Part shown: positions 23,899-64,000 of the stretch, piece after piece | Position numbering within the stretch: position 1 is the stretch's first letter | Layout of the letters: each line of letters begins with the position of its first letter | Source: an uncultured Acidobacteriota bacterium | Lineage (GTDB): Bacteria; Acidobacteriota; Vicinamibacteria; Vicinamibacterales; UBA2999 | Length of the DNA: 64,000 nt | Direction of reading: 5' to 3' | Assembly: GCA_963793705.1 (NCBI GenBank) | Contig: CAWCBC010000013.1 | Coordinates: 14,600 to 78,599, forward strand | Position numbers and translations under genes: made by a program | Notes under the pieces: model-generated | Database searches by the model: none | What the model saw: only the letters and a program-made list of their open reading frames with translations | What the model was told of the DNA's origin: nothing

Positions 23899-24270
23899 AT
23901 GCCCTTCGTGATTACTGACCCGTGCATCGGCACGAAAGACTCCGCCTGCGTTGACGTCTGCCCCGTGGACTGCATTCACCCGCGCAAGGACGAGCCGGAG
24001 TTCGAGACCGCCGCGATGCTCTACATCCACCCCGAGGAATGCATCGACTGCGGCGCGTGCGTGCCGGCCTGTCCGGTGGCCGCGATCTATGACGGCATCG
24101 ACTCGACGCCTGCCAGCCAGAAGAGCCTGATCGAGGCGAACGCGATCTACCGCGCCGGCGATGCGGACGCCGTGGCGCGCGCGGAGGCGATCGTCCAGTC
24201 GCACCAGGCCTCGCACCCCGACCTGATGGCGGTCCCTCCGGCGGAACGGGCGACCAAGCACGGGAAGTAA
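23899..24270 (+). CDS. 7Fe/2x[4Fe-4S]-type ferredoxin
   Basis: MPFVITDPCIGTKDSACVDVCPVDCIH...CIDCGACVPACPVAAI shows the canonical Cys clusters. Confidence 0.9.
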   Translation: MPFVITDPCIGTKDSACVDVCPVDCIHPRKDEPEFETAAMLYIHPEECIDCGACVPACPVAAIYDGIDSTPASQKSLIEANAIYRAGDADAVARAEAIVQSHQASHPDLMAVPPAERATKHGK

Positions 24271-24302
24271 GAACTTCCACTGGGCGTTGGGAATCATCGG
24301 AT

Positions 24303-29300: not shown

Positions 29301-29979
29301 GGTCCCAGCCCGCCCCCTCAACCGCTCGACCGGCCCATCGTCATTGGCGTCGCCGCCCGGCAGTGGCGACCGCGCCGAGCGACGGAGGGAGCGACGGACG
29401 CCTTCGGGTGTGTTCTCCAGGGCGCCCTGCAGCCACGCATCGAAGGCTTCGGCGTACAGGCGGCGCGCTTCGCTTTCGGTCAGGACGCGGAAGAGCGGGT
29501 CGATGCCCGCTTCGACCGGGCGCTCGCGCAACAGGTCGGCACAAAAGCCATGAATCGTGCTGATGTGGGCCTCTTCGAGGTTCATCAGGGCCGCGTCGAG
29601 ACGTTGCCGCGAGGCTGCATCCAGACCGGATCTCCCGTCCGCCGCTCGAGTTCCTGGCGGAGGCGAAGCTTCAGCTCCCCAGCGGCCTTCTCGGTGAACG
29701 TGACCGCGACGAGATCGCCGACGCCCGCCTTCCCTGTTGCGAGGACGCGAACAATCCGGCGGACCAGCTCAGTGGTCTTGCCCGTGCCGGCCGCAGCCTC
29801 GACCACGAACGTCGAGTCGAGATCGGTGGCGATCGCGTCGCGCGCATCCTGATCGTCGAGCGGAGGAGGTGCACCTGGTCTACCGGAACGCCTTGGCGGC
29901 GTTCCTTCTTGTCTACCGGAATGCCTTGGCGGCGTTCCTCCTTGTCTACCGGAACGCCTTGGCGGCGTTCCTTCTTCAT
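26323..29979 (-). CDS. AddA/UvrD-like helicase with C-terminal PD-(D/E)xK nuclease domain; at least 5 frame changes; may be split before the nuclease domain
   Basis: [30 protein letters not shown] (Walker A), [19 protein letters not shown] (DExx), VHKAKGLEF. Nuclease domain [19 protein letters not shown]...QVQLYAEAI in 26323..26733. Candidate ATG at 29979. Confidence 0.75.
26795..26836. repeat. Heptamer tandem repeat CACTTGG x6 (degenerate) between helicase and nuclease parts of addA-like gene
   Basis: gacttgg aacttgg cacttgg cacttgc cacttgt cacttcc read directly. 42 nt in total. Confidence 0.85.
29878..29976. repeat. Three tandem 33-nt units, each GTCTACC + hairpin GGAACGCC-TTGGC-GGCGTTCC + TTCTT
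   Basis: Units at 29878-29910, 29911-29943 and 29944-29976, with 2 substitutions in the middle unit. On the minus strand they directly follow the candidate addA ATG and read [11 protein letters not shown] x3. Confidence 0.9.
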
Positions 29980-32023
29980 GGCCGCGACCTCAGCTCGATC
30001 GAGATCGCGCAGCGGCTCCGACGACTTGCGCGCGATGCGAAGCTCCTCGTGCGGTCCACACACCGGCCGGAAGTCGCACCAGGCGCAGGCACGCTCGTTC
30101 GGGGCGGCCGCGAGGAAGCCGAGCTCAATCGCGCGGTCGATGATCTCCAGCGCCTCGACGCCAGCGCGCCGCGCCTGCGGCAGCAGCGGAACCGGCCGAA
30201 CCTTGTACCCGCCTGCCGTCGTGCAGAAGAACAGGCGCGTTTCCGCCACCGGTTTGCCCATGACCTCCTCGATTGCCGCCGAGTAGAGGACCGGCTGCAG
30301 CGTCCCGCCACCGCCGATCACCAGTGTGTCTTTCGTGCGGTCCTTCCCCGTCTTGTGATCCGTCACGCGCAGGACGCCGGTCTGTTGGTGCTCTTCGACG
30401 AGATCCACCGCGCCGCGCAGCTTGAACCGTCCGTCAATCAGCACTTCCTCGCGCTGGCTTCTCGGGTCGCGTTCTTCCGATAGCGGCAGGCCGAACGACA
30501 GCTCGAAGTAGCGCGGGATCCAGCCCTCTTCTTCGGCGGTCCGCCGCAGCCAGCCGCGCAGGTCTCGCGCGATCACCGCGATCTCTTCCTGCCAGACGCG
30601 ATCGATCGCGGGGGCAAGCCGCTCTCGGTATTCGTCGGCGACCATCCGCGATGGCCTCCTCGAGGACGATGAGTGCTGCGCTCAGGCTCGCGGCCGTCAC
30701 CGGCAACGCGTTGAGCCGCTCGAGCTCGCGAGCGGTGACCGCCTGGATGCGATGGACGATGCTGCCGCGCGTGAGCGGGTCGAGCCGCTGCAACGGTTCG
30801 GGACGTTCGGCGGGCGCGAGCCGATAGACCGCGCTCAGAAAGAACTGATACGGACAGGCGCTGAACTTCTGGAGCGCAGAGATCGAATACGGCCGCTGCT
30901 GAAGCCGCTGCGACTCCAGTGCGCCGCGCGTGGCCTCGGTCACGCGCGTCAACCCATCGAGGTGCGACCACCGCGCCTGGCCCCGGCCCCAACGTTCGGT
31001 GACCGATCGGCGCAGCGATTCGTTCAGCCGAAGCAGGTATTGCGCGTGCCCGCGGACGGCGGCTGCATCCGTCGCCTCGAGCAGCGTCCGCAGAACGGAC
31101 AGGTCGTGTTCCTGATCGTCGATCGCCTCCGCGGGATCTTTCGGCGCGGGCCAGGCCAGCGTGGAGTCGCCGGCTGCGGCGGCTGCGCTCTTCAGGCGCT
31201 GCAGATCGGGAATCGCGCCCGTCGCGCCGCGCAGCACGTCGAGTGCGTAGAACGACGGGACGCGTTCGCGCCCTTCCGCGACATCCAGCCGTGGATAGGA
31301 CACATAGAGACGCTCGGTGGCCGCACCGGCGGCGAGGTGCAGCAGCACGCGCTCCCGCCGCGACCGCTCGGCCCGCGTGACCAGCGTCGATCCCACGACC
31401 TCCCTGGCTTCATCCAATAAGAGAGGATCCTGATCGGACTTCCGCGGGAACATTCGCTCCGCAAGCCCTGGCACGAACACCACGCGGAACGACCGCCCGC
31501 GGGCCTGCGCGGGACTGCCGACGAACACGCGCCCATAACGGCGTGACGGCGGGTCGCTGTCGACGCTGCGGAGCCGCTCCATCAGCACCATCCGGACTTC
31601 GTCCACCGACACCGGTCCGACCGACGCCATCGGCCGCAGGTCGGCCAGCACGCGGCGCACGTAGGCCGGCGCACGCAGCGTTCGCGGCGCAAGATCGTCC
31701 AGGCGCTCGAGCCATTCGCCCCAGCGGGCCAGCGGCGGCCACGCGGCCATCTCCGTGATGATCGGAAGCGCGAACGCTCCCAGATGCACGAGCCGCTGCC
31801 GATCGTCGTCGATGGCGGCAAGTCGGGCAGGCGACGGATCGTCCCTCTCGATCTCGCGACGACGCGCGCGCAGCTCTTCGTCGAATCCGTCGAGCCGCCG
31901 TCGCCAGCGGCCGGGACCACCGCCAACGACCGCGGCTTCGACGAGCATCCGCTCCCATCGCCGCGGCGTGCGGAGGCTTCCTGCCAGCACCGCGTTGTCC
32001 TCGTCGTCTGCGGCGGTCGTCAC
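29976..32023 (-). CDS. AddB-like PD-(D/E)xK nuclease subunit, C-terminal two thirds; frame correction near 30640 and at the 3' end
   Basis: [14 protein letters not shown]..., [26 protein letters not shown] and the Cys cluster [14 protein letters not shown] start at 32023, directly after a REP hairpin. Confidence 0.7.
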
Positions 32024-49144: not shown

Positions 49145-51289
49145 TTGTTGATGCTCACCCTTCTGCTGTCGCTGGGGCGGACCTCAGCTGTGCAGCAAGG
49201 CGGGACAACCACCCAGCCGTCGAATACGACAGTCGCCGGCGAACTGTTGATTGAGCCGGCGACACTCATCAACCTGGGATTCGAGTGGTTCATCCAGGGG
49301 GACGCCAACCGCAACGCCGCGGTCGCCGTTTCGTTCAGGAAACAGGGCGAAACGGCCTGGCGCGACGCGCTGCCGCTCCTGCGGCTGCAGGGTGAGCGTA
49401 TCTACGCGGAATCGCGAGTGGACGTCATCGCGCCCAACATGTTCGCCGGGAGCGTGCTCGATCTGGAGCCCGGCACGGCCTACGAGGTCCAGCTGGTCAT
49501 GAAGGACCCGGACGGCGGTCGACTGCGGCGAGTCGCGCCGCATCGTCACCGTCCGGACGCGCGCCGAGACCGACGCCCTATCAGCGGCGGGCGCACATTT
49601 CACGTCTACCCGCATGGCTTCAAGGGATCGAAGACCGAACCGGCGTTCGAAGGGCTGATGTGCGCCTACAACGAATGGTGTGCCGGCACCGACTGGGCGA
49701 CGTCAGGCCGTCCGCGCGTGCGGCCGGGCGACACGATCCTGGTCCATGCCGGCGTCTACAAATACAACCGCTACGAGTACACCAACGACGCGTCGGTCAA
49801 TCGCACGGTGCCGCTCGACGGCACGTACTACCTGACCGCGGATGGCACACCTGAGATGCCAATCGCGATCGTCGCCGCCGGCGATGGCGACGTCGTCTTC
49901 GACGGCAGCGGCAACTTCGCGCTGTTCGACGTGCGCGCGGCCGACTACACGTATTTCGAGGGCATCACCTTCCGCAACACCGAGGTCGGAATCCTGGCCG
50001 GAACGCAGTTCCTGCTTGGCTCGAAGGGGTTGACGGTCAAACGGAGCCGGTTCGAAAACGTCGGCGCCGGCGTGTTCAGCAACTACTCGGGTTCGAGCGG
50101 CTTCTACATCGCCGACAGCACCTTCATCGGCCGGAACGATCCGAAGCACCTGATTGGCTGGGCGGGCGATATGTGGACGAAGTTCCGCGGCGTCGAGGGG
50201 CAGATCTTCCCTCCCGCCATGGCGTCCTACGTCGCCGTCAAACTCTATGGCCCCGGCCATGTCGTCGCCTACAACTACATCGCCGACTTCCACGACGGCA
50301 TCAACGTCGAGACCTACGGCAATCCCGACGGCTCGGTCGCCTCCGGCCCCGGCATTGTTGACGGCCCGAAGTATCCGACGCGCGATGCCTGGGACCGCCG
50401 GCCCGTGGCGATCGACTTCTACGGCAACTACATCACCAACAGCCACGACAACCCGATCGAGGCCGACGGGAGCATGCACAACATCCGCATCATGCGGAAC
50501 CTCTTTCTCAACCACGCGTCGCACGCCTTCTGCAATCAGCCGACGCTCGGCGGCCCGGTCTACTGGATCCGCAACATCGCCTATCACCTGCCGGCGGGAT
50601 CGACGCGGCTGACCAACGGCGCCGCGGGCGCGCTGTTCTACAACAACACCATCCTGTCGGAGACGGCGGCGGCCGCGACCTCGAACTCGCACTGGCGCAA
50701 CAACCTGATACTCGGCGAGAACGCACTGCCGGCGATCTTCGCGGTGACGACGTTCACGAACTACACCTCGTCCGACTACAACGGATTCCGTCCGAATCCT
50801 GGGGCGAAGACGTCGTTCGAGTGGACCTCGCCGCCCTCGCCCGTCATCGCGGACTTCACCGGCCCCGGTCGCGCCGCACAACTCGAGACCCGCCGCTTTG
50901 CGTCCCTGGCCGACTATGCCAAGGCGACCGGCCAGGACGGACACAGCGTGCTGGTGGATTACGACGTGTTCATGAAGGTGCCGAAGCTCGACGCGCAGGA
51001 TGCGGCGACGGTGCAGAGGTTGTATGACGCGCGCGACCTCGACTTCCGCCTGCGATCTGGATCGGCGGCCGTTGATCGCGGCGTCGCGCTGCCGACCGTC
51101 ACGAGCGGATTCTCCGGACGGGCGCCGGATCTCGGTGCCATCGAAGCCGGTGCGCCCGCGCCAACCTACGGCCCGCGTCCGGTCCCGCAACGACTCGAAC
51201 GTTTCGAACGACTCGAACGACTCGAACGACTCGAACGACTCGAACGATTCGAACGATCCGAACGATCCGAACGATCCGAACGACTATAA
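49145..51289 (+). CDS. Secreted right-handed beta-helix (pectate-lyase-fold) protein; local frame errors near 49510-49590; C-terminus runs into a 9-nt repeat
   Basis: Parallel beta-helix-like repeats (FEGITFRNTEVGILAG, VKRSRFENVGAGVFSN, YIADSTFIGRND, NYITNSHDNPIEADGS, IMRNLFLNHASHAF, YNNTILSE). Tail RLERFERLERLERLERLERFERSERSERSERL*. Confidence 0.7.
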   Translation: MLMLTLLLSLGRTSAVQQGGTTTQPSNTTVAGELLIEPATLINLGFEWFIQGDANRNAAVAVSFRKQGETAWRDALPLLRLQGERIYAESRVDVIAPNMFAGSVLDLEPGTAYEVQLVMKDPDGGRLRRVAPHRHRPDARRDRRPISGGRTFHVYPHGFKGSKTEPAFEGLMCAYNEWCAGTDWATSGRPRVRPGDTILVHAGVYKYNRYEYTNDASVNRTVPLDGTYYLTADGTPEMPIAIVAAGDGDVVFDGSGNFALFDVRAADYTYFEGITFRNTEVGILAGTQFLLGSKGLTVKRSRFENVGAGVFSNYSGSSGFYIADSTFIGRNDPKHLIGWAGDMWTKFRGVEGQIFPPAMASYVAVKLYGPGHVVAYNYIADFHDGINVETYGNPDGSVASGPGIVDGPKYPTRDAWDRRPVAIDFYGNYITNSHDNPIEADGSMHNIRIMRNLFLNHASHAFCNQPTLGGPVYWIRNIAYHLPAGSTRLTNGAAGALFYNNTILSETAAAATSNSHWRNNLILGENALPAIFAVTTFTNYTSSDYNGFRPNPGAKTSFEWTSPPSPVIADFTGPGRAAQLETRRFASLADYAKATGQDGHSVLVDYDVFMKVPKLDAQDAATVQRLYDARDLDFRLRSGSAAVDRGVALPTVTSGFSGRAPDLGAIEAGAPAPTYGPRPVPQRLERFERLERLERLERLERFERSERSERSERL
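51191..51289. repeat. Eleven tandem 9-nt units CGACTCGAA (degenerating to CGATCCGAA, CGACTATAA)
   Basis: Read directly. The last unit contains the stop TAA 51287-51289 and most of a TATAAT hexamer. Confidence 0.9.
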
Positions 51290-52285: not shown

Positions 52286-52316
52286 AGGCCGACCTCAAGG
52301 TCGGCCTCTACCCTAC
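52286..52316. repeat. REP-like hairpin AGGCCGACC-TCAA-GGTCGGCCT followed by CTAC-C-CTAC
   Basis: 9-bp stem 52286-52294 / 52299-52307. The second CTAC (52313-52316) contains the aminotransferase TAG stop. Confidence 0.8.
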
Positions 52317-53455
52317 ACGCGAACGAGACGCTCGGCAGCGCGCTTCAGCGTGTCGTCCTTCTTCGCAAAACAGAACCGCACGACCGGGCCCGGCTCTTCG
52401 TTCTCGTTGAGGAACGGCGAGATCGGAATCGCCGCCACGCCATGCTCGCGCGTCAGCCGCTGCGCGAAGTCGATATCGCGCTCATCGGTGATGGCCGAGT
52501 AGTCCACCAGCTGAAAGAACGTACCGCGGCACGCCAGCGGCTTGAAACGCGAGCCGGCAATCAGTGACAGAAACAGGTCGCGCCGCCCCTGGTAGAACGC
52601 GGTGACATCTGCGGCGGCGGGGTCGCGGTTCACCATCTCGGCATACGCCATCTGCACCGCCCCGTTCACCGCAAACGTGACCCACTGGTGCACGCCCTGA
52701 ATCTCCCTCGTCAGTTCCGGCGGCGCCGCGCAGTAGCCGACCTTCCATCCCGTCGTGTGGTAGGTCTTGCCGAATGAGCTGATGACGATGGCGCGGGCGG
52801 CGATGTCCGGATAGCGCGCCAGGCTTTCGTGCGTGCCGCCGTCAAAGATGATGTGCTCGTAGACCTCGTCGCTGATCACGATCGCGTCGGTTCCCTCGAG
52901 CGTCCGCCGCAGTTCGGCGATGTCGTCGGCGGTCCAGACCATCCCGGTCGGGTTGTGCGGTGTGTTGAGGACGATGGCCCGCGTGCGACTGGACACCTTC
53001 CTGCGGACCTCATCCCAGTCGATTCGGTAGTCGGGGTAGCGGAGCGTGACGTACCGCGGCACGCCGCCGCTCAGCACGATCGACGGCGTGTACGAGTCGT
53101 ACGCCGGCTGAAACAGGAGCACTTCGTCGCCAGGGTGCACGAGTGCCGTCAGCGCGACGAACAAGCCTTCGGTGGCCCCGGTCGTGACGGTGATTTCCGT
53201 CGCCGGATCGTAGCGGCGTCCGTACAGCCGCTCGATCTTCATCGCCAGCGCCTCGCGCAGCGCGAGCACGCCCGGCATCGGCGCGTACTGGTTGTGTCCC
53301 TCGCGCATGAAGCGCGCAACGCCCTCGATCAGCTCCGGCGCGCAGCTGTAGTCAGGGAAGCCCTGCGACAGGTTGATCGCGCCGTGCTCGTTGGCCAGGC
53401 GCGTCATCACGGCGAAGATACTCACGCCGCCGGACGGCAGCTTCGGTTTCAGCAC
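52313..53455 (-). CDS. Class I/II pyridoxal-phosphate aminotransferase (YbdL/methionine-aminotransferase-like)
   Basis: Start set at GTG 53455, giving MLKPKLPSGGVSIFAVMTRLANEHGAINLSQGFPD, the typical N-terminus. SSFGKTYHTTGWKVGY contains the PLP lysine motif. Confidence 0.85.
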   Translation of the reverse strand: MLKPKLPSGGVSIFAVMTRLANEHGAINLSQGFPDYSCAPELIEGVARFMREGHNQYAPMPGVLALREALAMKIERLYGRRYDPATEITVTTGATEGLFVALTALVHPGDEVLLFQPAYDSYTPSIVLSGGVPRYVTLRYPDYRIDWDEVRRKVSSRTRAIVLNTPHNPTGMVWTADDIAELRRTLEGTDAIVISDEVYEHIIFDGGTHESLARYPDIAARAIVISSFGKTYHTTGWKVGYCAAPPELTREIQGVHQWVTFAVNGAVQMAYAEMVNRDPAAADVTAFYQGRRDLFLSLIAGSRFKPLACRGTFFQLVDYSAITDERDIDFAQRLTREHGVAAIPISPFLNENEEPGPVVRFCFAKKDDTLKRAAERLVRV

Positions 53456-53499
53456 GGAGGTTCCAGCCAGAGCATCATTCGCGATCTGGTGTTCAGCTC

Positions 53500-53741
53500 C
53501 GATCCACAGGTGAGGCTTGATCGACACCAGCGGATACTTGCGACGGAGATCGACGACCCGATCGTAATACCCGGCCTTGGGAATCGCGCCGGTCACGAGC
53601 GCATGGCGAAGCCGGCGCAGTTCGTAGCGATACAGATCGTTGATGAAATCGTAGACGAGTTCGGGAGGTGTTGTCAGCGGTCGGCCGCACGCCGTGCAGG
53701 AGGAGCTGCTCGAGCACCTCCGCCCGATAGCGGTACGCCAT
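53500..53741 (-). CDS. Small hypothetical protein, frameshifted; 3' end unresolved (currently runs into the aminotransferase frame)
   Basis: MAYRYRAEVLEQLLLHGVRPTAD (53493..53777 frame) continues as ...LRHALVTGAIPKAGYYDRVVDLRRKYPLVSIKPHLW in the 52313..53596 frame. The ATG overlaps the upstream stop (ATGA at 53739-53743). Confidence 0.35.
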
Positions 53742-54472
53742 CACCGCCGCGCGCCGGGGGTCGCGGGCGCCGCGCACGGCGGCTGCTTGACGTAGGCGCG
53801 AGCCTCCGTCATTTCAGGTGGCGACCCGGGACGGCTGCCCCACCACGAGATGAGCCGCTGGTACTGGGCGCAGGCGACGGCGATGCGCTGCTGGCGCGCG
53901 GCGGACCGCGCCGCACCAAGCAGGACGGCGGGCGTCGAGCCGACCCGCTGCGCCGCGACGTCGAATGCACGCGCGGCTTCGTCGTAGATGTGCAGCTGCA
54001 GCCAGAAATAGCCGGCGGCTTCGTGTGCGGAGAGCACCGGAACGGCCGGCAGCCTCGCCTCGAGCTGCAGCAACTCGCGCCGGAGCATCTCGTCGATGAG
54101 CAGCGCCATCTCGGCCCGTTCGTGTTGAGCGGCCGGCAGCGCGGCCCGCAGCACCGCCTGCATGATGCGGGCGACGGGATCGGCGGCCGCCGCCGGCTCG
54201 AGCGCGGTAATGGCCTGCTTCACCGGCTGGAGGGATGCGGCCGATCCAAATTGCGCGTCGGCCACGCGAGCAGCCACGAGACCGCGGACGTAGATCGCCA
54301 CCGTTTCCGCTGACGCGCATCCCGCGCGCGCCGCCGCACCGTAGGCCTCGGCGGCCGCGATGAGATCGAACGCCTCGGCGAGTCGCGCTGCCTCCTCGAC
54401 ATGCCGGGCCGCATCGCCACGACACGGCGCGTTCTGCAGCAGGGCAAGCGTGAGCAGGGTGGCGAGCAACAC
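53741..54472 (-). CDS. Hypothetical exported helical protein
   Basis: 243-aa ORF with a GTG start and an N-terminal hydrophobic segment LLATLLTLALLQNAPC. Ala-rich helical repeats. No family recognised. Confidence 0.5.
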   Translation of the reverse strand: MLLATLLTLALLQNAPCRGDAARHVEEAARLAEAFDLIAAAEAYGAAARAGCASAETVAIYVRGLVAARVADAQFGSAASLQPVKQAITALEPAAAADPVARIMQAVLRAALPAAQHERAEMALLIDEMLRRELLQLEARLPAVPVLSAHEAAGYFWLQLHIYDEAARAFDVAAQRVGSTPAVLLGAARSAARQQRIAVACAQYQRLISWWGSRPGSPPEMTEARAYVKQPPCAAPATPGARR

Positions 54473-54505: not shown

Positions 54506-55366
54506 TTACAGGATGCGCACGCGGGCGCGCGCCTCGCCAAGCACGATTTCGTCGCCTGATTCGAGACGAATCCCTCGCGACCCGGCAGGCACCGCCACCG
54601 TCCGTCCATTTCTCACGATGCTGGTGCCGTGGGCGCTGCGATCGTCACGAAGGCGGTAGTGGCGGGCTGCCTCGACGTACTCGATATGCGCATGCCGCCG
54701 CGAAACGGAGTGGTTCGATGCGCCCGCGAGGTCGACGAACGCGACGTGATTCGTCCGCACGAGGCGGCTGAGGCTGTCGCGAACCTCGGCACATCGCCCG
54801 AGATTCACCCGTGGCAGCGCAAAGGCGTAGCTCGCCTTTTCGGCCGTGCCGTTGACGATGGTGATCCTGAGCTCGCGAGCGGCCTGCGGCGCCGGGCCGG
54901 GAGCCGGCGCGGGGACAGGCCCAGGGATACGCCCAGGGACAGGCAGGGCGACGGGCGCGGGTGCCGGCGCGCCGCGCGTGAACTCGACGTGAAAGTCGGG
55001 CGTCGGCCAGGCCGCGCCAGGCCGCGGCGCGTAAGCGACCACACACTGCAGCGACGCCGGATCGCAGCCAGCGTCGCGCAGCCGCGCCGCGATGCGCTGC
55101 TGCAGCGTGGGCTCGCTCTCGAACACGGCCGCGAACCGCGCGCGGTCATCGCGAGACGAGGCCGCAATCGTCACGTGGATTCGGTTGAACGGAAACACGT
55201 AGCGGCCGCGTGCGGCAGGCTCGAGCCGCTCGGCAACCGTGTCGACAATCGCTTGTGCGATCTCGAGCGGCTCGTGCGCGCCTGACCTCGACCACTCGCG
55301 CGCGGCGCGCTCGACCGCGCGCGTCATGCCTGCCTCGAGACGCTTCACTTTATGGAGGATATTCAT
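54506..55366 (-). CDS. FhaA-like protein 2: DUF3662-type N-terminal domain + C-terminal FHA domain
   Basis: MNILHKVKRLEAGMTRAVERAA...EPLEIAQAIV...YVFPFNRIHVTIAA... (FhaA_N-like), Pro/Ala linker, then NLGRC...VSRRHAHIEY....YRLRDDRSAHGTSIV (FHA). The ATG overlaps the PBP stop (ATGA). Confidence 0.75.
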   Translation of the reverse strand: MNILHKVKRLEAGMTRAVERAAREWSRSGAHEPLEIAQAIVDTVAERLEPAARGRYVFPFNRIHVTIAASSRDDRARFAAVFESEPTLQQRIAARLRDAGCDPASLQCVVAYAPRPGAAWPTPDFHVEFTRGAPAPAPVALPVPGRIPGPVPAPAPGPAPQAARELRITIVNGTAEKASYAFALPRVNLGRCAEVRDSLSRLVRTNHVAFVDLAGASNHSVSRRHAHIEYVEAARHYRLRDDRSAHGTSIVRNGRTVAVPAGSRGIRLESGDEIVLGEARARVRIL

Positions 55367-57027
55367 TCGATAAGACCCCTCGCCGCGGCAGCGGTGACAA
55401 TCTCGCCGGCGGCAGGCGCGGCGACCGAGCCGCCGTAGCCCGCCTGTTCGAACAGCACGGCAAATGCGATCTGCTTCTCCCCGCGGTGGGGAGCGAATCC
55501 GACAAACCACGCGTGCGACGGCGCGTTGGCGACCTCCGCCGTACCGGTCTTGCCGGCAATCCGCCCCGGGTGCGCGCCGAGCGTCCGACCGGTTCCGGCG
55601 ACCACCGCGTCGCGGAGCGCACCGCCAAGAAGCGTCGCCGCCGCCGGGGTGAGCAGGCGATCGGTCTTGCCAGAATTGGGTCCGGCCTGAAGGACGCCGG
55701 ACCCACATACGTCGGACTTTCGTCAGCCGCGGTTCCCGCAGCAGACCCCCATCGGCGATCGCCGCGGCCACTCGCGCCATTCGCAGAGGCGTCGCGACCA
55801 CGTCCCCCTGCCCGTAGGCGGCGTGAGCCAGCGTTGCGCGCACGCGGGACACCGAGTTGTCGCGCGCGATCGACACACCCACCAGCGTGGCCGTATCCAG
55901 CAGCGGCTGGGGACCGAGTCGAACGGCCAACTGGGCGAAATAGGCATTGCACGACTGGACGATGGCGTCGTGCATCGCGAGCGAGCCGTGTGGATGGTCG
56001 TCCCGCAGGTCATCCCTGACCACGCCGAATCCAGACACACGCGCGCCGACGCGGCCCTGATCCTGCCGCGTGCACATGAACGAGTCGTTCCAATTCGCCG
56101 AATCGAGCCGCAGCGCAGCGGCCGCCGTCACCAGCTTGAACGTCGAACCTGGCGCATAGAGCCCGTACCGCCGCCCGATCGAACACCGCCTCTCCCGCCT
56201 CTCCGGCTTCCCCGCCATCGTCCACGTCGCCAACAGGCAACGGGTAGCTCACGGACGCGAGGAGGGCACCTGTCGTCGGGATCGATCACGACGGCGGCGG
56301 CGCGACCCGTGGAGGTGCGCGCCGCGTGTTTCGCGAGGATGCGGGCGACGCGCGCCTGGAACGGGGCGTCGATCGTCAGCGTCACGTCGCGCGTGCGCTC
56401 GAGAAACGCCTTGACGGCCGCGTGGCCAGGCTGACGGCGATGGCGCAGCAGCGGAAGCAGATCGCGATAGTCGCGCCGAACCGTCGGCACGGATCGGCCG
56501 GCGGCATCGGTCACCGAGACCACGGCGGCGTGATCGTCAAACCCGCGCAGCCGGTCCTGCAGATCGCGCTCGATATACGAGGAGTTGCTCGCGCCCCAGT
56601 TTCGGCGTGTCGGGAGATCGCCGATCAGATGAAACGCCATGGCGCCGAGCGGATAACAACGCTCCATCCCTTCGGCCGGCGCGCGCTGCACGCCACCTGA
56701 CGCGTCGCACTCTGCGATCTCGATGCCGCGCTTCTTGTATTCAGCCGATGCGCTCTTCATCAGCGCGAGGTCGCTCGTCGCCAGCGGCAAACCGTTGCGG
56801 TCGAACACCGTGCCGCGCGGGATCTGACCGATCACCTCGAGCACGCGCGGGTTGTATTGATAGCGACGGACGCCGTCGGCCTGACGCCCGAGATGCGGCT
56901 TGACGGCGTAGGTGTCAGCCCGGATGACTTGAACGTTCACCAGCACCCCGATCAGCACGAGGGCCGCAACCGTCAGGGTCGCGGCGATCGAGCGGACGCC
57001 GCGGCCGAAGGGGGCCGACGTCGCCAA
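55363..57027 (-). CDS. Class B penicillin-binding protein (PbpA/PBP2-like transpeptidase); several frame corrections; start tentative
   Basis: TM IAATLTVAALVLIGVLV, AAAVVIDPD, SYPLP, APGSTFKLVTAAAAL (SxxK), VQSCNAYF (SxN), GKTGTAEV (KTG). Pieces are in ORFs 56128..58776 (3' part), 56010..56252, 54506..56233 (5' part) and 55363..55605. Confidence 0.8.
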
Positions 57028-58776
57028 GACCGCTGTGGGGCGGGCGCGGCCGAAGGCGGACCCGCCAGAACCGATGGCGACGAGGGCCCCGAGCGCCGCG
57101 AAGTTCGCCACCATCGCCGAGCCGCCAAAACTGACGAACGGCGTCACGACACCGGTCAGCGGGACCATCCCAAGCATGCCCGCTGCCATCAGCACCACCG
57201 GAAAGATGAGGAAGAGCGTGAGGATGGTGGCGAGAAAGAATGCGTAGTCGTTCGGCGCGTGGAGCGCCGCTCTGAACCCGCGCCAGCCGATGATCGCGAA
57301 CGCGCCGACGACGCACAGGAGCCCGACGAATCCGAGCTCCTCGCCAATTGCGGCAAGCGGAAGATCGGTGTAGCCCGCGGGGATATACCGTGTGTCGCCA
57401 AGTCCGAGGCCGGTGCCGAAGAGCCCTCCGGTCGCGAGCGCCCACATGGCCTGCGCGATCTGGTCGCCGCCGCGCGCCACGTTGTCCCACGTCGATTGCC
57501 ACATGTTCACTCGCGCAGACAACGTCGACGAGATATTCAGGGCGTAGCCGGCGGAGAAACCGGCGGCAAGAACCATCAGGCCGGCGACCGCGAGGCCGAT
57601 GCGGTTGCGGGCCAGCGCATAGATCGCCAGGAAGACGCAGGAGACGAACAGCGCCGGGCCGAGGTCCCGCTGCAGAAAGAAGAACAGCAGCGCTGCGGCG
57701 ATGCCAACCGCCACGGGCAGCACATAGTCGAATCGGGGGAACTGAATCCAGGTCGGCAGCCGCACGTCGCGGATGGTGCGGCCTCGAATCTGTCGCAGCA
57801 GTTCCCAGCGCCTGGCGAAATAGCCGGCGAGGAAGAGTCCCAGCAGCAGGCGGATCCCTTCGACCGGCTGGATGGGCCCGAGATTCACCCTGGCGTTGCT
57901 GCCGACGGGACCGCTGCCAAAGAGCAGCAGCATCGCCGACAGGCCGAGCGCACCGGCCAGCGGCACATACGTGAACGTGGCCAGCGTCGTGCGCCGGAAG
58001 TCGATCAGCGACACCGCCGCGAAGCCCAGACAGCCGATGAGCACGCCCTGCGCATATCGCACGAACAGCGCCGTGTCGCGCAGCGGATCGGACCGGCTGA
58101 GCACGACCGCAAAACCGATCGCCGTCAGCAGGTGCGCCGCGCCGAGAAGCGCGTAGTCGCCTCGACCGGAACGACGCCACCAGACGAGCACGACCGCCCA
58201 GATGGCAGCGAAATAGATGGCCGCCCATCGAAACGTCTGCTGCCGAAAGGCCTGCGCCGTGCGCACGACCAGGCGCGGCTTGATGGCCGCCAGGTCGTCC
58301 GACGTGAGCAACGCCAGCCGTGTGGGGCGCGGTGCCTGCTGCGCTTCCGCCCGCTCGACGGCCCGTCGCAGCCGCGTCTGATACTCGAGCGAGGCGCCGC
58401 GTTCGATGGATTCGGCGGACACGCCAGCGCCCATGACGGCGCCCACGTTCGCAATGCTGCCTTCGTCCGTGCGAAGAGCGACCACGAACGCGAGCAGTTG
58501 TGCCGCCGCGAACCGCCGATCCGCGGCGGAGGCGAACGCCGGCTCCAACGCGCGTTCGAGCTCGCGTGCGTCGGTGACCGTGTTGAGGTTGACGATCGAC
58601 GCGGCGGGTGCGGTCGCGGCACTCACCCGGGTTCGTCCTGCGTACGACAACCCGATGGCCATCATCGCCACCAGCGTGGTGAGGACGAGAAGGAGTTGAT
58701 GCCGATCGGGCTGATTCGCGCGGCGAACGCCTTCCAGCCGGTCACGCTCGACCGCGGGAGTGAAGGTGGCGCTCAC
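57028..58776 (-). CDS. SEDS-family (FtsW/RodA) peptidoglycan polymerase with about 190-aa N-terminal extension; no stop codon before the PBP module in the printed frame
   Basis: SEDS core ...GPIQPVEGIRLLLGLFLAGYF...LQRDLGPALF...GGDQIAQAMWALATGGLFGTGLGLG...PAGYTDLPLAAIGEELGFVG...TGVVTPFVSFGGSAMV. The N-terminal part has one TM and a segment IVNLNTVTDARELERAL. Confidence 0.8.
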
Positions 58777-58806
58777 TGTTCGCTTTCTTCGACCGCGGTC
58801 ACGCCT

Positions 58807-60745
58807 TCACCCAGACGTCTCCTCGACCTGCAGCAGCGCGCGCTGTGTTCTGGCGATGTTCTGGGGCACGTTCGCGAGGCTGCCGGCGTTGCCGTAGTGG
58901 GTCAGCGCGAACCGATAGGCCTCGGCGGCGCGAGCGAGATAGTCGCGCTCCTGCGGCAGGCCCTCCAGTTGCCGCGCGGTTCGCACCATCGCGGTGCCGA
59001 GCGAACGATAGCCATCGGCCAGCAATGCCGCGTCGCGCTCGCTCACGTCGTACTGGCGATCCTGTGCCTGTTTGAGCGCGTCCGCCCCGCGCTCCACATC
59101 GTCAAGACCGACGACGAACGTTCGGAACAGGCCAAGGAACGGATCGAGCCAGTTGGAGCGCAGCTCGTGCGCCTCGCGGAAGGCGACGATGGCTTCGCTC
59201 AGCTCGCCGCTGCCGGCGTCGCCATCGCCTCTCAGCTTCTGCGCCTCTCCGTTGATCCGGTGCAGATGGCCTTCGCAATAGCGCAGCGCAGCCCTGGAGT
59301 TCGCGTTCGTCGCCCGCCCTCGAGAGCGCACGCGACAGCGCGTCGCGGGCCTCTGCCCACTGTGCCTCGCGGACCGTCGGCGACGGGCTGCGATAGTTCG
59401 CGAACACGCGGTCCGCGAGCGTGGTGGTTCGATCGACCAACGCCTCCTCGAGCTCTCTGACGCCGAAGCGCAAGTTACTGCGATTCCTCAGCTCGTCGTA
59501 GTCGTGCCAGGCTGCCGGCAGCTGCTCGAACCCGTGCGTCGACGCGGAGTGCGCCAGCCGCCCCGCCTCCGCGCCGATCGAGCACTCGTTGACCGTCAGG
59601 CCAAGGCCAACCAGCAGCAGCGCGGCGCGAAACAGACGACCGAACCGGCTCGGCGGAGCCTTCTTTACGGGTGCCGGGGGCGGCGCAGACACCACCGCGG
59701 CTATCGGAGGCTGCGGAGGTACCACGGGCTTCGGGAGAGGCGGCGGTATCGTGCGGCGCGTTTTGTCCGCATCGACATCCTCCTGGCGCGGTCCGGCCGC
59801 CGGACGCCGCTTCGGACGCGGCGAGGTTCGCCTGGTCGCGGCATCGTCGTACGCGCGAGCCGGCCATCCAGCTTCTTCAGCGCGGGTCTGTCGTCCCGCC
59901 TTGAACCGCTCGAGGTCCTCGCGAATCTCCCGCGCGCTCGCGTAGCGCTCCGACGATCGCGGGTCGAGAAGCTTGCTGACGATCGCCGCCAGGCCAGCGG
60001 GGCACCGTTCCATCAGCGATGGCGGCGGACGCCGTGCGAGGATCAGGCGCTCGAGCCGGCGGGTATCCGCAGCCTGGAATGGCGGTGCGCCGCGGAGCAT
60101 CTCGTAGAGCACGACTCCGAGGGCCCACAGATCGGCGCGCGCATCGACCTCCCCCGTCTCCAGCCGTTCCGGCGAGAGGTAGGCAACGCTTCCGAAATCG
60201 TTGCGCGTCACTTTCCTGCTCAGCGACAGCGCCTTCGCGGTGCCGAAATCGAGCACCTTCACTTCCTGCGCTGATGTGATCCGGACGTTCCTCGGCTTCA
60301 AATCGAGGTGCAGCAGCGACTGGAGGTTCCGGCCGTTGATGACGGCCTCGAAGGCGTGCGCGTCTTCGAGAAAGCGCGCCAGCTCCACGGCGATCTCGGC
60401 GGCCCGCGCCGGCGGCATCGGCCCGTGTGACACGAGCTCCGAGAGGTTCTCGCCGTCGAGATACTCCATGGCGACGTAGAAGTAGCCGGAGTCCTCGTCG
60501 ATACCGTATTCGTAGACGGCGGGCACATGGGCGCCGCGCTCGCTGAACCGCTTCTGCAGCTCGGCGCCGAACTGCTCCGCCTCGACGATCTCCTGCGCTT
60601 CTTTGTCAGTGCCCTGCTGAATGAGCTTCAGCGCCACCCGCTGCTTGGCACGCGTGTCCAGAGCCAGGAACACGACGGCCATGCCGCCGTGGCCGATTTG
60701 CCGGAGGATCTCGTAGGGCCCGACCTGTTTGAAGACGGTGGTCAT
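58807..60745 (-). CDS. Ser/Thr protein kinase with one TM and extracytoplasmic helical (TPR-like) domain; frame correction near 59320
   Basis: GHGGMAVVFLA, VALKLI, HLDLKPRNV, DFGTAK, AYLSPE. Pro-rich linker, TM LFRAALLLVGLGLTV. The C-terminal part continues in ORF 58807..59331. No PASTA-like repeats seen. Confidence 0.85.
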
Positions 60746-62409
60746 CGCGGTGCGGAGGATCGAGTTGGCGCGGTCGTGACAAACCAGTTGTCGCGCTTCA
60801 CCGCCGCGGCAGCCGTATCGCTCAGCCCGGTGAACGACGCCTCGCTCATGCCAACAAACACATTGCTCAAGAACGTCGGCGACGCCCGCTGGACGATCAC
60901 GGCAGCGGCGGCGCGATCGGACCGGCCGTTGCGCTCGAACGAGTTGTGGGACACGCGCGGAGTGGCGCCGTCACGAACGATGAGCGCAGGACCGGAATTG
61001 TCGCGAATGTCGCTCGCCATCAGCGCAGACGTCCCGCCGCCCTGCGAACTCCACGCGCAGCCCGGGTCGCACCGGTGATTTCGACGTCGCGGATCGAAAC
61101 GGTCGAGTTCTGGACAAGGATGCCAACGGGAAGCGGAGTTGCCGAATCACCGCTGACCCTAAATCCTACGAACTCGGCGCCAGAGACGTTCCTGGCCAGG
61201 ACAGCCGGCACCTCCGCCGCGTCCGGCACCGCGGCCGGGAGCCGGATGATGGCACCACCTGGCACGCGACTGACGAGCCGGACTCCATCCTTGAGCGTCA
61301 ACGGTTCGCGATACTCGCCCGGGCTCAACGATGATTTCCGATCCTGGAGGGGCATCACGCATCGCGTCGGCAATCGACTCGCCTGGCGACACCGTTCGCG
61401 TCAGGGGCTGAGCCAAGGGCACGGCTGCCAGTCTCCGAAGATCGTCCAGGGTCCACCCATACTTCCATTGAGCGAACACTCCGGCAATGCCAACCAGCAG
61501 CACGATCGTGGCGAACTGCACCGAGCGGCGCCTCAACCATCCTGGTCCAGCGGCTCGCTGTGCATCGGACGCCATAGACGCCGCTGACGAGCGGGACTGA
61601 ATTGAGGTCCGCCCGTAGTTGCTGGCGGCGAACTGCTCTCCTTCGACATACACGACGGTGACGTTATCCTTGCCGCCGGCCGCATTCGCCGCGGCAATCA
61701 ATTCACGGACGACCGAGTCGGGGTCGCCGGCCCACTGACTCACCGTTCTGGCAATGGATACCGAATCGACGAGATCGGTCAGCCCATCGCTGCAGATCAG
61801 GAGCGCCGCGTCAGGTTCGAACGCCACTTCTCCGACGTCAATGAAATCGCGATCGCGCCGATCGTGAAACTCCGAGCCGACGTCGCGGTAGACCTCGTTG
61901 CGGCGCGGATGCCGCATCGCCTGGCGTTCGGAGATCTCGTTGGCATCCTCGCGCTCGCCGACGGGCGAGTGGTCGCGCGTCAGCTTTTCGATGCTGTCCC
62001 CGCGCAGCTTGTACAGCCGCGTATCGCCGACATGACCGAAGGTCGCCTTCCCGTTTCGCACGAGCACGGCGGTCAGCACGCAGGCCATGCCGTCCCATTC
62101 AGCACGGGTCGCGGCGAGCCGGTAGACGTCGTTATTCGCGGCGGTGATGCCGTCGCGGAGACGATTGGCGGCGGATCCGAGATCCCGCCCGAGGTATTCC
62201 TTCAGGATCGACTGCGCGACGTCCGCGGCTTTCCCGCCGGCCGCCTGGCCGCCGACTCCATCGATCACCATGAAGACGCCGCGATCGGCGTCACAGTGGA
62301 AGCGATCCTCGTTCACTTCGCGCTGCAGCCCGGCGTCGGTGCCGCCGGACGCACGCAGCGCGTCCTGACCGCCCGGATCGGTTGCCGCCGCGGGAACAGC
62401 CCTAGTCAC
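60742..62409 (-). CDS. PP2C-family Ser/Thr phosphatase with one TM and extracytoplasmic beta-helix-like domain; two frame corrections (near 61340 and 61020)
   Basis: GGTDAGLQREVNEDRF...FMVIDGVGGQAAG...ICSDGLTD...GGKDNVTVV (PP2C). TM FATIVLLVGIAGVF. Then SIADAMRDAPPGSEIIVEPG / EYREPLTLKDGVRLVS...FVGFRVSGD...ILVQNSTVSIRDVEITGA / ASDIRDNSGPALIVRDG...VSHNSFERNG. The stop overlaps the kinase ATG. Confidence 0.8.
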
Positions 62410-63447
62410 GATCGGGTAGCTCCGCCCACGCGTAGAGCGCTACGAGCGCTACAAGCGCCAACAAGAACGCGAATCGGGCCCACAACAGGATCGTCATTTG
62501 GCAGTCAACCCGCGTGAACTCGAGGAAGACCGTCTCCGCCAGGCCGATGCGGGCCCGGTCGGGCAACGGCGTTTCCACGCCTGTCTCACGCCTGACGCCG
62601 TCCACGTCGTCGTAACCGCGCGGCACGTGTCGATTATTGAGCGTCGTGCCGAGCGTGCTCAGGTCGGTCAGGAAACACTGACCGGTCGTCGGATCGCGGC
62701 GGATGCGCGCGTGCTCGCGCGAGACATCGACCGACGACACAATTTTGACGTCCACGGGGCGCGAGCTGCCTCCGCGCCCGATCGTGACGGCGTCGGTCGT
62801 GATGTCGTAGGTGTGCTGTCCGGATTGATCTTCGTACGTGATCGTGGCGAACGGCCTCAGCACCGGCTGCTCGCGGGTGCGCACCGTTCGCTCCTCGGCC
62901 TGCCCACCGGAGCCTTGGCGAAGGTGGGTCGCCGTCCGCTCCACGCTCGTTCGCTCCATGGGCGTCGTTCGCTCTTCGTCGTCGTTCGTTCGCCGACGTG
63001 CGTCGTAATCCGCCGCGTGCGCTCGCCGACGCCAAGCTCTGGCTGCGCGGGCAGCACGAGCTCGGAGTCGATCAGGATGTCGCCCTCGGCGAGCTCGCCG
63101 TCCGGATCGGGCACGAACTCGACATGCCACTCCCCTGTCGGCGTCTGTATCTTGGGCCCGGTCTCGCCGAAGAAGCGCCCGCCGTAGCGGCGCAGCCCGG
63201 ATGGGTTGTTCAGGCGATCCAGCTCCTCGCGCAGGGCGCGAACCGTCTCGTCCTGAAGAATGGGGATGATGCCTTCGAGACGGGCGAACTCGGCAGGATG
63301 GAGGTAGACAATGTACCGGCTCGGCGCCAGCGTGGAGTATCTGAGCGTCTCCAGGTTGCGCCGCATGTTCTCGACGACGGCGGCAATCAGATCGCGTGCG
63401 GGCCGGCGCCGATTCCCGGCGACGGCGGCGCTGTCGTTGGTTACCAT
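62402..63447 (-). CDS. FhaA-like protein 1: DUF3662-type N-terminal domain + FHA domain + C-terminal hydrophobic segment; frame correction near 63000
   Basis: MVTND...ARDLIAAVVENMRRNLETLRYSTLAPSRYIVYLHPAEFARLEG... (62857..63777 frame), then ...VTIGRGGSSRPVDVKIVSSVDVSREHARIRRDPTTGQCFLTDLSTLGTTLNN (FHA), then MTILLWARFAFLLALVALVALYAW. The stop overlaps the PP2C GTG. Confidence 0.75.
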
Positions 63448-63492
63448 GTCCGCGCCAGCATTGCACCGATCCGCACGGAGAGTCTTAAGGAA

Positions 63493-64000
63493 TTGCCAAA
63501 GGATTTCCAAACACCCGCCCTGACGCTGCGGTTCGGCGACTTCCTGCTCGACTCGAGCGCGCGGCGCCTGTCGCGCAGCGGCAACGACGTCCGGCTGTCG
63601 CCGAAGGCGTTCGACCTGCTGTGCGCGCTCCTGGCCCGCCGGCCGGATGTCATCGTCGAAGGGCGACCTGCTGGAGGCCATCTGGCCGGATACCAACGTC
63701 ATCGAGGCCAACCTCAACGTCGTCATCGCCGAAATCAGAAAGGCGCTCGGCGACGATCGGCAGGCGCCGCGATTCATCCGAACCGTGCACGCGGTCGGAT
63801 ACGCCTTCTGCGGTCAGGCGATCGAAGTCGACGAAGCGGCCGCGCAGCCGGCGTCGCGCTGCTGGCTGTCATGGAAGGACCGGTCGTTTGCGCTGTCGGC
63901 CGGCAACAACACCATCGGCCGCGATCCGCGCAGTGCGGTCTGGCTCGACGATGACAGCGTGTCACGACGTCACGCGCTCATCGCCGTAGACAAGGATACG
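63493..64000 (+). CDS. OmpR/CadC-type winged-helix DNA-binding domain fused to FHA domain (3' end outside window); frame correction near 63655
   Basis: LRFGDFLLDSSARRLSRSGNDVRLSPKAFDLLCALLARRPDV / SKGDLLEAIWPDTNVIEANLNVVIAEIRKALGDD...FIRTVHAVGYAF (wHTH), then NTIGRDPRSAVWLDDDSVSRRHALI (FHA start). The second part is in an open frame with no Met, so it is absent from the ORF track. Confidence 0.7.

Follow-up and report, generated by a model that had tools for sequence, protein, structure and literature searches.

The 64,000-nucleotide stretch of DNA analyzed here (the window; contig CAWCBC010000013.1 of an uncultured Acidobacteriota bacterium) carries on its minus strand an operon of FHA-domain, phosphatase, kinase, and cell-wall synthase genes. 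It is probable, in our judgment, that this operon is an Acidobacteriota module in which Ser/Thr phosphorylation controls a peptidoglycan synthase, by the mechanism proposed below, and that the reading frame breaks in the window copy are errors of the deposited sequence. The core order is FhaA-like 1 (FhaA1), a micro-transmembrane (TM) peptide, a PP2C phosphatase, a Ser/Thr kinase, a fusion of SEDS and class B penicillin-binding protein (SEDS::bPBP), and FhaA-like 2 (FhaA2); a gene for a winged helix-turn-helix (wHTH)–FHA regulator diverges from it. An earlier, sequence-only reading had recognized an FHA/PP2C/Hanks-kinase module beside a SEDS and bPBP synthase. That logic holds, but the synthase is one polypeptide, and the micro-TM peptide has to be added.

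The region analyzed spans 54506-63447 on the minus strand, and its stop-free translated fragments were compared with Pfam. Two intact loci served as references: L003, a JGI metagenome contig in which all operon genes are intact and which has 91% nucleotide identity to the window, and L002, an intact orthologous locus used as reference for Pfam and tblastn. A genome scan, with one genome per species, yielded 387 stretches that matched the fused synthase, and the best 80 of the 387 were used for locus comparison; neighboring genes were traced by tblastn with the L003 proteins, and gene order was judged where the flank was long enough. FHA, PP2C, Pkinase, FTSW_RODA_SPOVE, and Transpeptidase were all matched in the window, FhaA_N weakly so, and the same families were matched in intact orthologues. 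The Acidobacterial origin that had been suggested for the DNA is supported by a homologue search, in which the relatives are metagenome-assembled genomes of Vicinamibacterales. Rfam and tRNA scans of the 64-kb window found no RNA genes.

The operon and its fused synthase

The best 80 of the 387 stretches all come from Acidobacteriota (Vicinamibacterales, Terriglobia, and Thermoanaerobaculia), and the Terriglobia loci include Acidobacteriaceae, Bryobacteraceae, Solibacteraceae, and the cultured Occallatibacter savannae AB23. Every one of these loci with enough flank keeps the order FhaA1–PP2C–kinase–SEDS::bPBP–FhaA2, both ectodomains included. In intact relatives the gene order is identical to that of the window, and FhaA2 lies directly 3' of the synthase in nearly all loci.

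The genes are closely joined. Three overlaps named previously can be read directly in the window: the PP2C gene starts with GTG at 62409 and shares 8 nucleotides (nt) with the preceding frame, whose stop is at 62402-04; ATGA at 60745-60742 joins PP2C and the kinase; and ATGA at 55366-55363 joins the synthase and FhaA2. Once a 1-nt insertion near 58817 is removed, the kinase stop and the synthase start overlap as well (GTGA, 58776-58773), and after that correction the peptide/PP2C, PP2C/kinase, kinase/synthase, and synthase/FhaA2 junctions all overlap. In two close relatives, the called genes for FhaA1 and the micro-TM peptide overlap by 4 nt.

The synthase (55363..58776, minus strand; insertions near 56275 and 56172 and a frame change at ~55700-55715) had been taken for a pair of genes, one for SEDS and one for a class B PBP. 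This division must be abandoned: no stop lies between the SEDS core and the N-terminal region of the PBP in the open reading frame (ORF) 56128-58776. Among the homologues, more than 120 clusters consist of single proteins, 1,050-1,150 amino acids (aa) long, with both PF01098 and PF00905, and in 82 loci a tblastn match within one ORF covers at least 80% of the query. The chain is laid out as an N-terminal cytoplasmic tail, a TM helix, a periplasmic domain of ~120 aa, a TM helix, a 10-TM SEDS core, a further TM helix, a divergent pedestal, and the transpeptidase.

By Pfam, the two enzymatic halves belong to the SEDS and transpeptidase families. The SEDS half scores 153-183 bits against PF01098 (gathering threshold (GA), 26.4) and keeps the catalytic motif PAG(H/Y)TDL in 74 of 82 cases. 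Against the NCBIfam equivalogs, it reaches 167-181 for FtsW (TIGR02614; cut-off 337.5) and 126-148 for RodA (TIGR02210; cut-off 336.7). Judged by its sequence, it is a family member that is neither an orthodox FtsW nor an orthodox RodA. The PBP half scores 135.9 bits against PF00905 in L002, and its STFK, SCN, and KTGT motifs are invariant; its score against NCBIfam PBP2 is 164, with a cut-off of 455. The Pfam pedestal models PBP_dimer and PBPA_dimer have no match at E ≤ 0.1 in the Acidobacteriota synthases, where the pedestal is signaled by a weak match of the PBP2 model to the segment after the TM helix and by nothing else. A search by domain architecture might miss the Acidobacteriota synthases, which could be because of this missing pedestal match.

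The N-terminal periplasmic domain is an orphan, with no match in Pfam and no sequence match in PDB. The AlphaFold2 (AF2) model of the N-terminal module is mostly helical, with a mean predicted local distance difference test score (pLDDT) of 78, rising to 85-93 in the periplasmic core, and a Foldseek search of PDB gave no match for it (best E 2.8). A helix-hairpin-helix/ComEA-like identity, considered for a "VNLNTV" motif, was dropped as unsupported, Pfam, PDB sequence, and Foldseek searches all being blank.

Outside the window, an ENA contig of 6,202 bp (P0094) encodes a 1,740-aa homologue with Pkinase, FTSW_RODA_SPOVE, and Transpeptidase in one chain. Because the kinase and synthase genes normally overlap by 4 nt (GTGA/ATGA), this triple fusion may be a 1-nt assembly error rather than real.

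Sensors, adaptors, and the divergent regulator

The kinase (58773..60745, minus strand; insertions near 59296 and 58817, stop as given at 58807) consists of a Hanks-type domain, a juxtamembrane linker with D-x-x-(A/K)-TRRT motifs (two in the window copy), a TM helix, and a periplasmic TPR-like domain. Pkinase is matched at 128 bits, and the best NCBIfam match of the kinase domain is the Stk1/PknB family. The VALK, H[G/L/N]DLKPRN, and DFG motifs are conserved; the kinase is of the non-RD type, with G, L, or N before the catalytic Asp in the commonest variants, among which the HRD form does not occur.

The sequence-only reading had given this kinase a helical, TPR-like ectodomain in place of PASTA repeats, and the AF2 model, Foldseek, and a sequence profile all bear this out. 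PASTA is not matched on the kinase, and the NCBIfam PknB_PASTA model covers the kinase domain only (9-302 of 563), at 202 bits against a cut-off of 450. The ectodomain model (pLDDT 92.4, predicted TM-score 0.84) is all-alpha, with eleven helices. Its Foldseek matches are TPR proteins only (SPY, OGT, and MamA; E ~1e-3, TM-scores 0.25-0.44), the sequence profile matches the TPR region of OGT at E 1.5e-4, and the Pfam TPR matches lie below threshold. Searched exhaustively with the profile, 1.84 billion cluster representatives yielded only 707 members of the family, and in full-length members the domain is always C-terminal, in proteins of about 600-770 aa. As judged from model and profile, the ectodomain is a dedicated TPR-like sensor family without a close solved relative.

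The phosphatase (60742..62409, minus strand; 1-nt insertions near 61321, 61056, and 61044) combines a PP2C domain, whose catalytic motifs are conserved among orthologues and whose best NCBIfam match is Stp1/IreP, with one hydrophobic helix and a C-terminal periplasmic domain of ~200 aa. The latter had been read as a beta-helix, and it is a right-handed one, in agreement with matches to PF13229 in 18 of 18 orthologues (best E 2.2e-10); the score is 27.3 bits in L003, against a GA of 25.9, and 16.6 bits in the frameshifted window fragment. Other Pfam matches are DUF1565 (9 of 18 orthologues) and NosD (4 of 18). Compared with PDB sequences, the profile of this ectodomain gives weak matches (E 0.004-0.4), nearly all of them to beta-helix alginate epimerases (AlgE-type) and lyases.

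Two FhaA-like proteins frame the operon. FhaA1 (62498..63447, minus strand; 1-nt deletion near 62976) has a weak FhaA_N-like N-domain, a GERTRRITT linker, and an FHA domain, and FhaA2 (54506..55366, minus strand; intact) has an FhaA_N-like N-domain followed by an FHA domain. The FHA domains score 28.9-41 bits against a GA of 20.7. FhaA_N (PF12401), the sole non-FHA family matched consistently in these proteins, is found in 16 of 16 FhaA1 orthologues (best E 9.5e-6) and in 5 of 12 FhaA2 orthologues, mostly below its GA of 25 bits. That there are two such proteins, as first proposed, agrees with a full-length alignment of the FhaA1 and FhaA2 profiles (hhalign probability 85%, E 6.6e-6). In all three FHA domains (those of FhaA1, FhaA2, and the regulator), the phosphothreonine-binding GR, S-x-x-H, and N-G positions are invariant.

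In this clade, the GERTRRITT of the FhaA1 linker is followed by a run of E-R-T-T-like repeats (GERTTTEERTTPMERTSVERTA; window ~62930-63010, minus strand). The run is threonine-rich and possibly multi-site, and the 1-nt deletion of the window copy lies inside it.

The TM segment once assigned to FhaA1 is real as a hydrophobic segment, but in 57 of 64 related loci it is a separate micro-ORF of 29-35 aa. Its consensus, MTLLLWARF..., is found across all classes sampled. In the window it is a single-pass TM peptide of 31 aa (MTILLWARF...; 62402..62497, minus strand), and only there is it in frame with FhaA1. Compared with the window, L003 has 23 nt of extra sequence just 5' of the micro-ORF start, and the in-frame reading could be explained by one more 1-nt error at that place.

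The divergent wHTH–FHA gene starts where it had been placed, at TTG 63493, 45 bp from the FhaA1 ATG at 63447. The window holds its 5' part (63493..64000, plus strand), cut by the window end and with one inserted nucleotide near 63658; the L002 orthologue, as tblastn query, matches it in two frames. Intact orthologues are 222-225 aa long and contain PF00486 and PF00498 (in L002, Trans_reg_C at 67.7 bits and FHA at 63.3 bits). Pfam finds neither a receiver domain nor a BTAD domain in the regulator, which is therefore neither a response regulator nor an EmbR. Its attachment to the operon is genuine here but clade-specific: it is a divergent neighbor only in most Vicinamibacterales-type loci, is not adjacent in Terriglobia, Bryobacterales, and several Vicinamibacterales loci, and in the single Thermoanaerobaculia locus is represented only by a weak match on the same strand, several kb downstream of the operon.

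Upstream of FhaA1 lies a candidate operator, two 11-bp direct repeats, GGAAATCCTTT and GGCAATTCCTT (63487..63508, minus strand), which overlaps the first codons of the regulator on the other strand; the candidate target stretch of the wHTH–FHA protein is GGAAATCCTTTGGCAATTCCTT. The repeats form an AT-rich block amid ~65-70% G+C, and the block is conserved in the intergenic regions of the loci. A box adjoining the repeats, C[CT]T[TA]A[AG]GACT upstream of FhaA1, is present in 24 of 38 loci with the regulator as neighbor and in 0 of 27 without it. The repeats abut the -35-like TTAAGA of a promoter-like element (63460..63488, minus strand), in which 17 nt separate TTAAGA from the -10-like TGCAAT and which ends 12 nt 5' of the FhaA1 ATG; the distance between the two elements is conserved among loci. 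Binding of an OmpR/PhoB-type winged helix to tandem repeats one helical turn apart, beside the -35, is a standard arrangement. A consensus promoter and terminator scan of the intergenic region found nothing at the 9/12 threshold, the promoter-like element scoring 8/12. The overlap of the repeats with the regulator's own first codons suggests autoregulation too, that is, that the wHTH–FHA protein also regulates its own gene.

Because only 12 nt separate the -10-like hexamer from the ATG, the mRNA of the window copy is predicted to be nearly leaderless. In L003, the FhaA1 start lies ~96 nt farther from the promoter-like element (L003:1120-1221 versus window ~63448-63457), and the additional sequence holds a long inverted repeat (CCGGCTGAAGCCGGACACCAC ... 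GTGGTGTCCGGCTTCAGCCGG) that is absent in the window.

A proposed phosphothreonine switch and its alternatives

Short threonine motifs recur among the proteins of the module. First, the juxtamembrane linker of the kinase, itself variable, has 1-4 copies of D-(D/E)-(D/E)-A-T-R-R-T in 59 of 61 orthologues, where shuffled sequences give an expectation of 1.7. Second, G-E-R-T-R-R-I-T-T stands between the two domains of FhaA1 in 42 of 48 orthologues (4.3 expected from shuffles). Third, the regulator ends in T-(K/R/E)-R-I-R, strictly so in 16 of 26 (1.1 expected), and T-x-R-I is seen in all 26 tails listed. Finally, the synthase begins with M-x-V-T-(Y/R/F)-(T/S)-(T/S)-A-x-E-R across all classes sampled (MAVTRST in Terriglobia); all 55 sequences that fit this pattern have Thr4 and Arg11, and the remainder are mostly close variants. 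T-x-x-I/T is the type of context that FHA domains read. These motifs are the most concrete candidate sites for the phosphothreonine wiring proposed here. A precedent for such docking comes from PMC6180346 (citing Roumestand 2011), according to which the juxtamembrane domain of Mycobacterium tuberculosis PknB recruits FhaA.

We infer a phosphothreonine switch, for which the conserved motifs supply candidate sites. In the mechanism that we propose, the kinase ectodomain and the phosphatase beta-helix would read a periplasmic cue, probably cell-wall status. The kinase would phosphorylate threonines in a shared T-x-R/S-(T/I) context, the candidate phosphosites being its own DEATRRT repeats, RTRRIT in FhaA1, the TKRIR tail of the regulator, and Thr4 of the synthase (MAVTRST/MSVTFT). 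The three FHA domains would dock on these phosphothreonines to recruit or gate the synthase and to switch the regulator, which would bind the two 11-bp direct repeats beside the -35 of the operon promoter. PP2C would reset the system.

Several considerations weigh against this account. Each of its mechanistic steps is drawn from conservation and analogy. The threonine motifs could be kept for other reasons, for example as membrane-proximal basic patches or, in the synthase, through constraints on translation initiation. The fused synthase may have an accessory role or serve elongation or division. Since the homology to FhaA_N is mostly sub-threshold in Pfam, and since the FhaA N-domain profile, compared with solved structures, matches FHA domains only and no FhaA N-domain, membership of the FhaA family is unproven, while the architecture is aptly called "FhaA-like." As many loci lack the regulator, feedback on transcription does not belong to the core of the system. 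Moreover, the co-occurrence of the box and the regulator is confounded, because the loci concerned form a clade, and it may partly reflect shared ancestry.

A more far-reaching version of the proposal is tentative, and we regard it as possible but doubtful. The operon might encode a third self-contained peptidoglycan machine of diderm Acidobacteriota, apart from the elongasome and the divisome, in which SEDS::bPBP is gated directly by phosphothreonine. The two sensors would set the phosphorylation of a T-x-R/S-(T/I) code on the kinase, FhaA1, the regulator, and Thr4 of the synthase, and the FhaA-like adaptors and the micro-TM peptide would read this code to switch polymerization, with transcriptional feedback in some lineages.

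Conversely, the fused synthase could be a housekeeping enzyme of the elongasome (RodA–PBP2) or the divisome (FtsW–FtsI), and the kinase, phosphatase, and FHA genes could be general regulators that are merely adjacent to it. The best NCBIfam matches of the two halves are indeed FtsW and PBP2, the 64-kb window has no other SEDS or bPBP gene, and the kinases of the actinobacterial operon have many substrates (PMC6180346). We nevertheless consider this unlikely. The FtsW, RodA, and PBP2 scores lie far under the equivalog cut-offs, and a dcw or mreBCD context is absent from the loci inspected and from the window. Gene order and translational coupling are strict across three classes, the sensor family of the kinase is confined to this protein type, and a conserved threonine motif sits on the synthase's own cytoplasmic tail. 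Furthermore, SEDS–bPBP chimeras coexist with canonical pairs in the genomes surveyed in PMC12516126.

The sensors and the regulator allow another view of the module, as mainly a device for sensing envelope stress or exopolysaccharide (EPS). The ligands of its ectodomains would be proteins or the polymers of capsule or EPS, its output would be mainly transcription through the wHTH–FHA protein, and the synthase would be one target. This would suit the alginate epimerases and lyases that are the best solved relatives of the beta-helix, the genes for a Pel9A-like beta-helix protein and a STAS protein that close relatives have nearby, and the conserved candidate operator of the regulator. It seems improbable, more so than a housekeeping role: the PDB matches are weak, the only conserved candidate operator sits in the operon's own promoter region, and the synthase and the two FhaA-like genes are never missing, not even in the Terriglobia, Bryobacterales, Thermoanaerobaculia, and several Vicinamibacterales loci from which the regulator is absent. 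Phosphorylation control of the synthase remains the reading that we prefer.

Alignment with L003 reveals at least 10 frame-breaking 1-nt indels in the operon region of ~9.5 kb, near 62976, 61321, 61056, 61044, 59296, 58817, 56275, 56172, and 63658, with the further frame change in the synthase at ~55700-55715. The breaks are isolated 1-nt indels, insertions nearly throughout. FhaA2 is the sole operon gene intact as deposited, all others switching frame at least once. Read through the indels in the frame of L003, all five genes lack internal stops, and their ratio of nonsynonymous to synonymous substitution rates (dN/dS) against L003 is 0.13-0.21. The same type of damage is found beyond the operon. 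Two genes downstream, for an 81-aa protein (p81) and an aminotransferase, carry 1-nt insertions relative to L003 (near 53673 and 53501), and distant window genes are broken as well, a PD-(D/E)XK nuclease being spread over two overlapping ORFs and the N-terminal part of a UvrD-type helicase being missing (regions 29671-32023 and 27139-29112). Because a relative with 91% identity is intact, dN/dS is 0.13-0.21, and unrelated genes are also split, the frame breaks are most likely sequencing or assembly errors, not decay. These errors are the reason that the public copy of the locus is annotated as truncated proteins, the products of 882 aa and 547 aa from the 396-kb source contig that sit in a public protein collection. 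An exact look-up of the window's 882-aa ORF returned no record. A decaying pseudogene cluster, with real frameshifts and a system that is non-functional in this organism, would account for so many breaks within 9.5 kb and for the truncated public products, but we reject it as very improbable on the indel pattern, the dN/dS values, and the window-wide splitting of genes, to which the similarly fragmented long contig L001, from an ENA metagenome assembly, can be added. The source assembly apparently has ~1 indel error per kb.

Downstream of FhaA2, all on the minus strand, lie a gene for a 243-aa protein with a hydrophobic N-terminus and a weak TPR_16 match (53741..54472, 33 nt 3' of FhaA2), the p81 gene (~53500-53740), and the class I/II aminotransferase gene (52313-53596). 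Their synteny extends only to the closest relatives (L001, L003, L005, L006, and the JGI 3300056388 contig); L002 and more distant loci lack it. The 243-aa gene may be a clade-specific extension of the operon.

Farther away, the window encodes an ABC1/UbiB-type atypical kinase of 681 aa (23912-25957, minus strand) and a protein with a lysyl-phosphatidylglycerol-synthase TM-region domain (PF03706; 46567-47559, plus strand). Close relatives keep a neighbor with the PF03706 domain (342-355 aa) ~8-10 kb from the operon. An intergenic short tandem repeat at ~51190-51260, with units like CGTTCGAGT / ATCGTTCGA, is longer in the window than in L003, by 9 nt and 20 nt.

Comparison with known systems

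Work on the control of SEDS–bPBP synthases by eukaryote-like kinases has been confined almost entirely to the PASTA kinases of Actinobacteria and Firmicutes. A version with other sensors, conserved across a diderm phylum, would mean that this type of control predates PASTA sensing or reaches more widely. Concrete candidate phosphosites and FHA partners are now available. For biochemistry, and for solving the structure of an intact polymerase/transpeptidase, a naturally single-chain SEDS::bPBP encoded together with its regulators is an attractive subject, and experiments are feasible since the operon occurs in at least one cultured Acidobacterium, O. savannae AB23.

The closest analogy is to the M. 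tuberculosis cluster Rv0020c-Rv0014c (fhaA-fhaB-pstP-rodA-pbpA-pknA-pknB), in which FHA adaptors, a membrane PP2C, Hanks kinases, SEDS, and a class B PBP are likewise clustered. Both operons open with a protein of FhaA-type architecture (an N-domain and a C-terminal FHA domain), and in both PP2C lies upstream of the synthase. The phosphatases share a PstP-like topology, that of a membrane PP2C with an extracytoplasmic C-terminal domain, which is a beta-helix here. As the cluster is conserved phylum-wide in Actinobacteria (PMC6554272), so is the present operon conserved widely in Acidobacteriota. The analogy is not complete. Here the kinase precedes the synthase and a second FhaA-like gene comes last, one non-RD kinase stands in place of two, and its ectodomain is TPR-like instead of being made of PASTA repeats. 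The SEDS and bPBP parts form a single chain, to which a periplasmic domain is added at the N-terminus. FhaB/FipA is absent, its position being taken by the TM peptide of 29-35 aa, which has no FHA domain. Finally, the host is diderm, and the similarity to FhaA_N is sub-threshold.

The sequence-only reading had proposed the operon as an under-described system. This stands in so far as our literature search for the operon in Acidobacteria, which left most subscription-journal papers outside its reach, found no description, but chimeras beside kinase and phosphatase genes are already in the literature. A 2025 survey in Microlife (PMC12516126) lists 117 SEDS–bPBP chimeras from InterPro as "bifunctional bPBPs," with examples from Senegalimassilia faecalis (931 aa), Rhodococcus jostii (947 aa), and Pedobacter ginsengisoli (1,341 aa). 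Some of them, for instance in S. faecalis and P. ginsengisoli, are flanked by Ser/Thr kinase and phosphatase genes, and the chimeras are proposed there to be additional morphogenetic synthases beside the canonical pairs. Like the protein described here, the surveyed chimeras are single-chain SEDS glycosyltransferase–transpeptidases. The survey discusses no Acidobacteriota example. Nor does it describe the adaptors with FHA domains, the micro-TM peptide, the two ectodomains, the motifs, the N-terminal module of two TM helices and a periplasmic domain, or the phylum-wide conservation of the operon.

In Firmicutes, PrkC–PrpC, StkP–PhpP, and Stk1–Stp1 are likewise paired, co-transcribed kinase and phosphatase genes, with cell-wall control as a common theme. 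The juxtamembrane domain of StkP is phosphorylated and affects cell division (PMC12077195). The module described here differs from these PASTA pairs in that PASTA is absent, the phosphatase is membrane-anchored with an ectodomain, and the FHA adaptors and the synthase are part of the operon.

The regulator resembles two other known proteins in part. EmbR is a wHTH–BTAD–FHA protein under Ser/Thr-kinase control, and here, too, a wHTH is coupled to an FHA domain; BTAD is absent, leaving a minimal two-domain protein of 222-225 aa. The terminal candidate Thr motif of the regulator, which might fold onto the FHA domain of the same protein, recalls GarA/OdhI, but it is C-terminal. In contrast to EmbR and GarA/OdhI, the regulator here is encoded divergently to a cell-wall operon, with a candidate direct-repeat operator of its own. 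Set beside all of these systems, the shared threonine motifs, the candidate two-repeat operator, and the orphan periplasmic domain on the synthase are new here.

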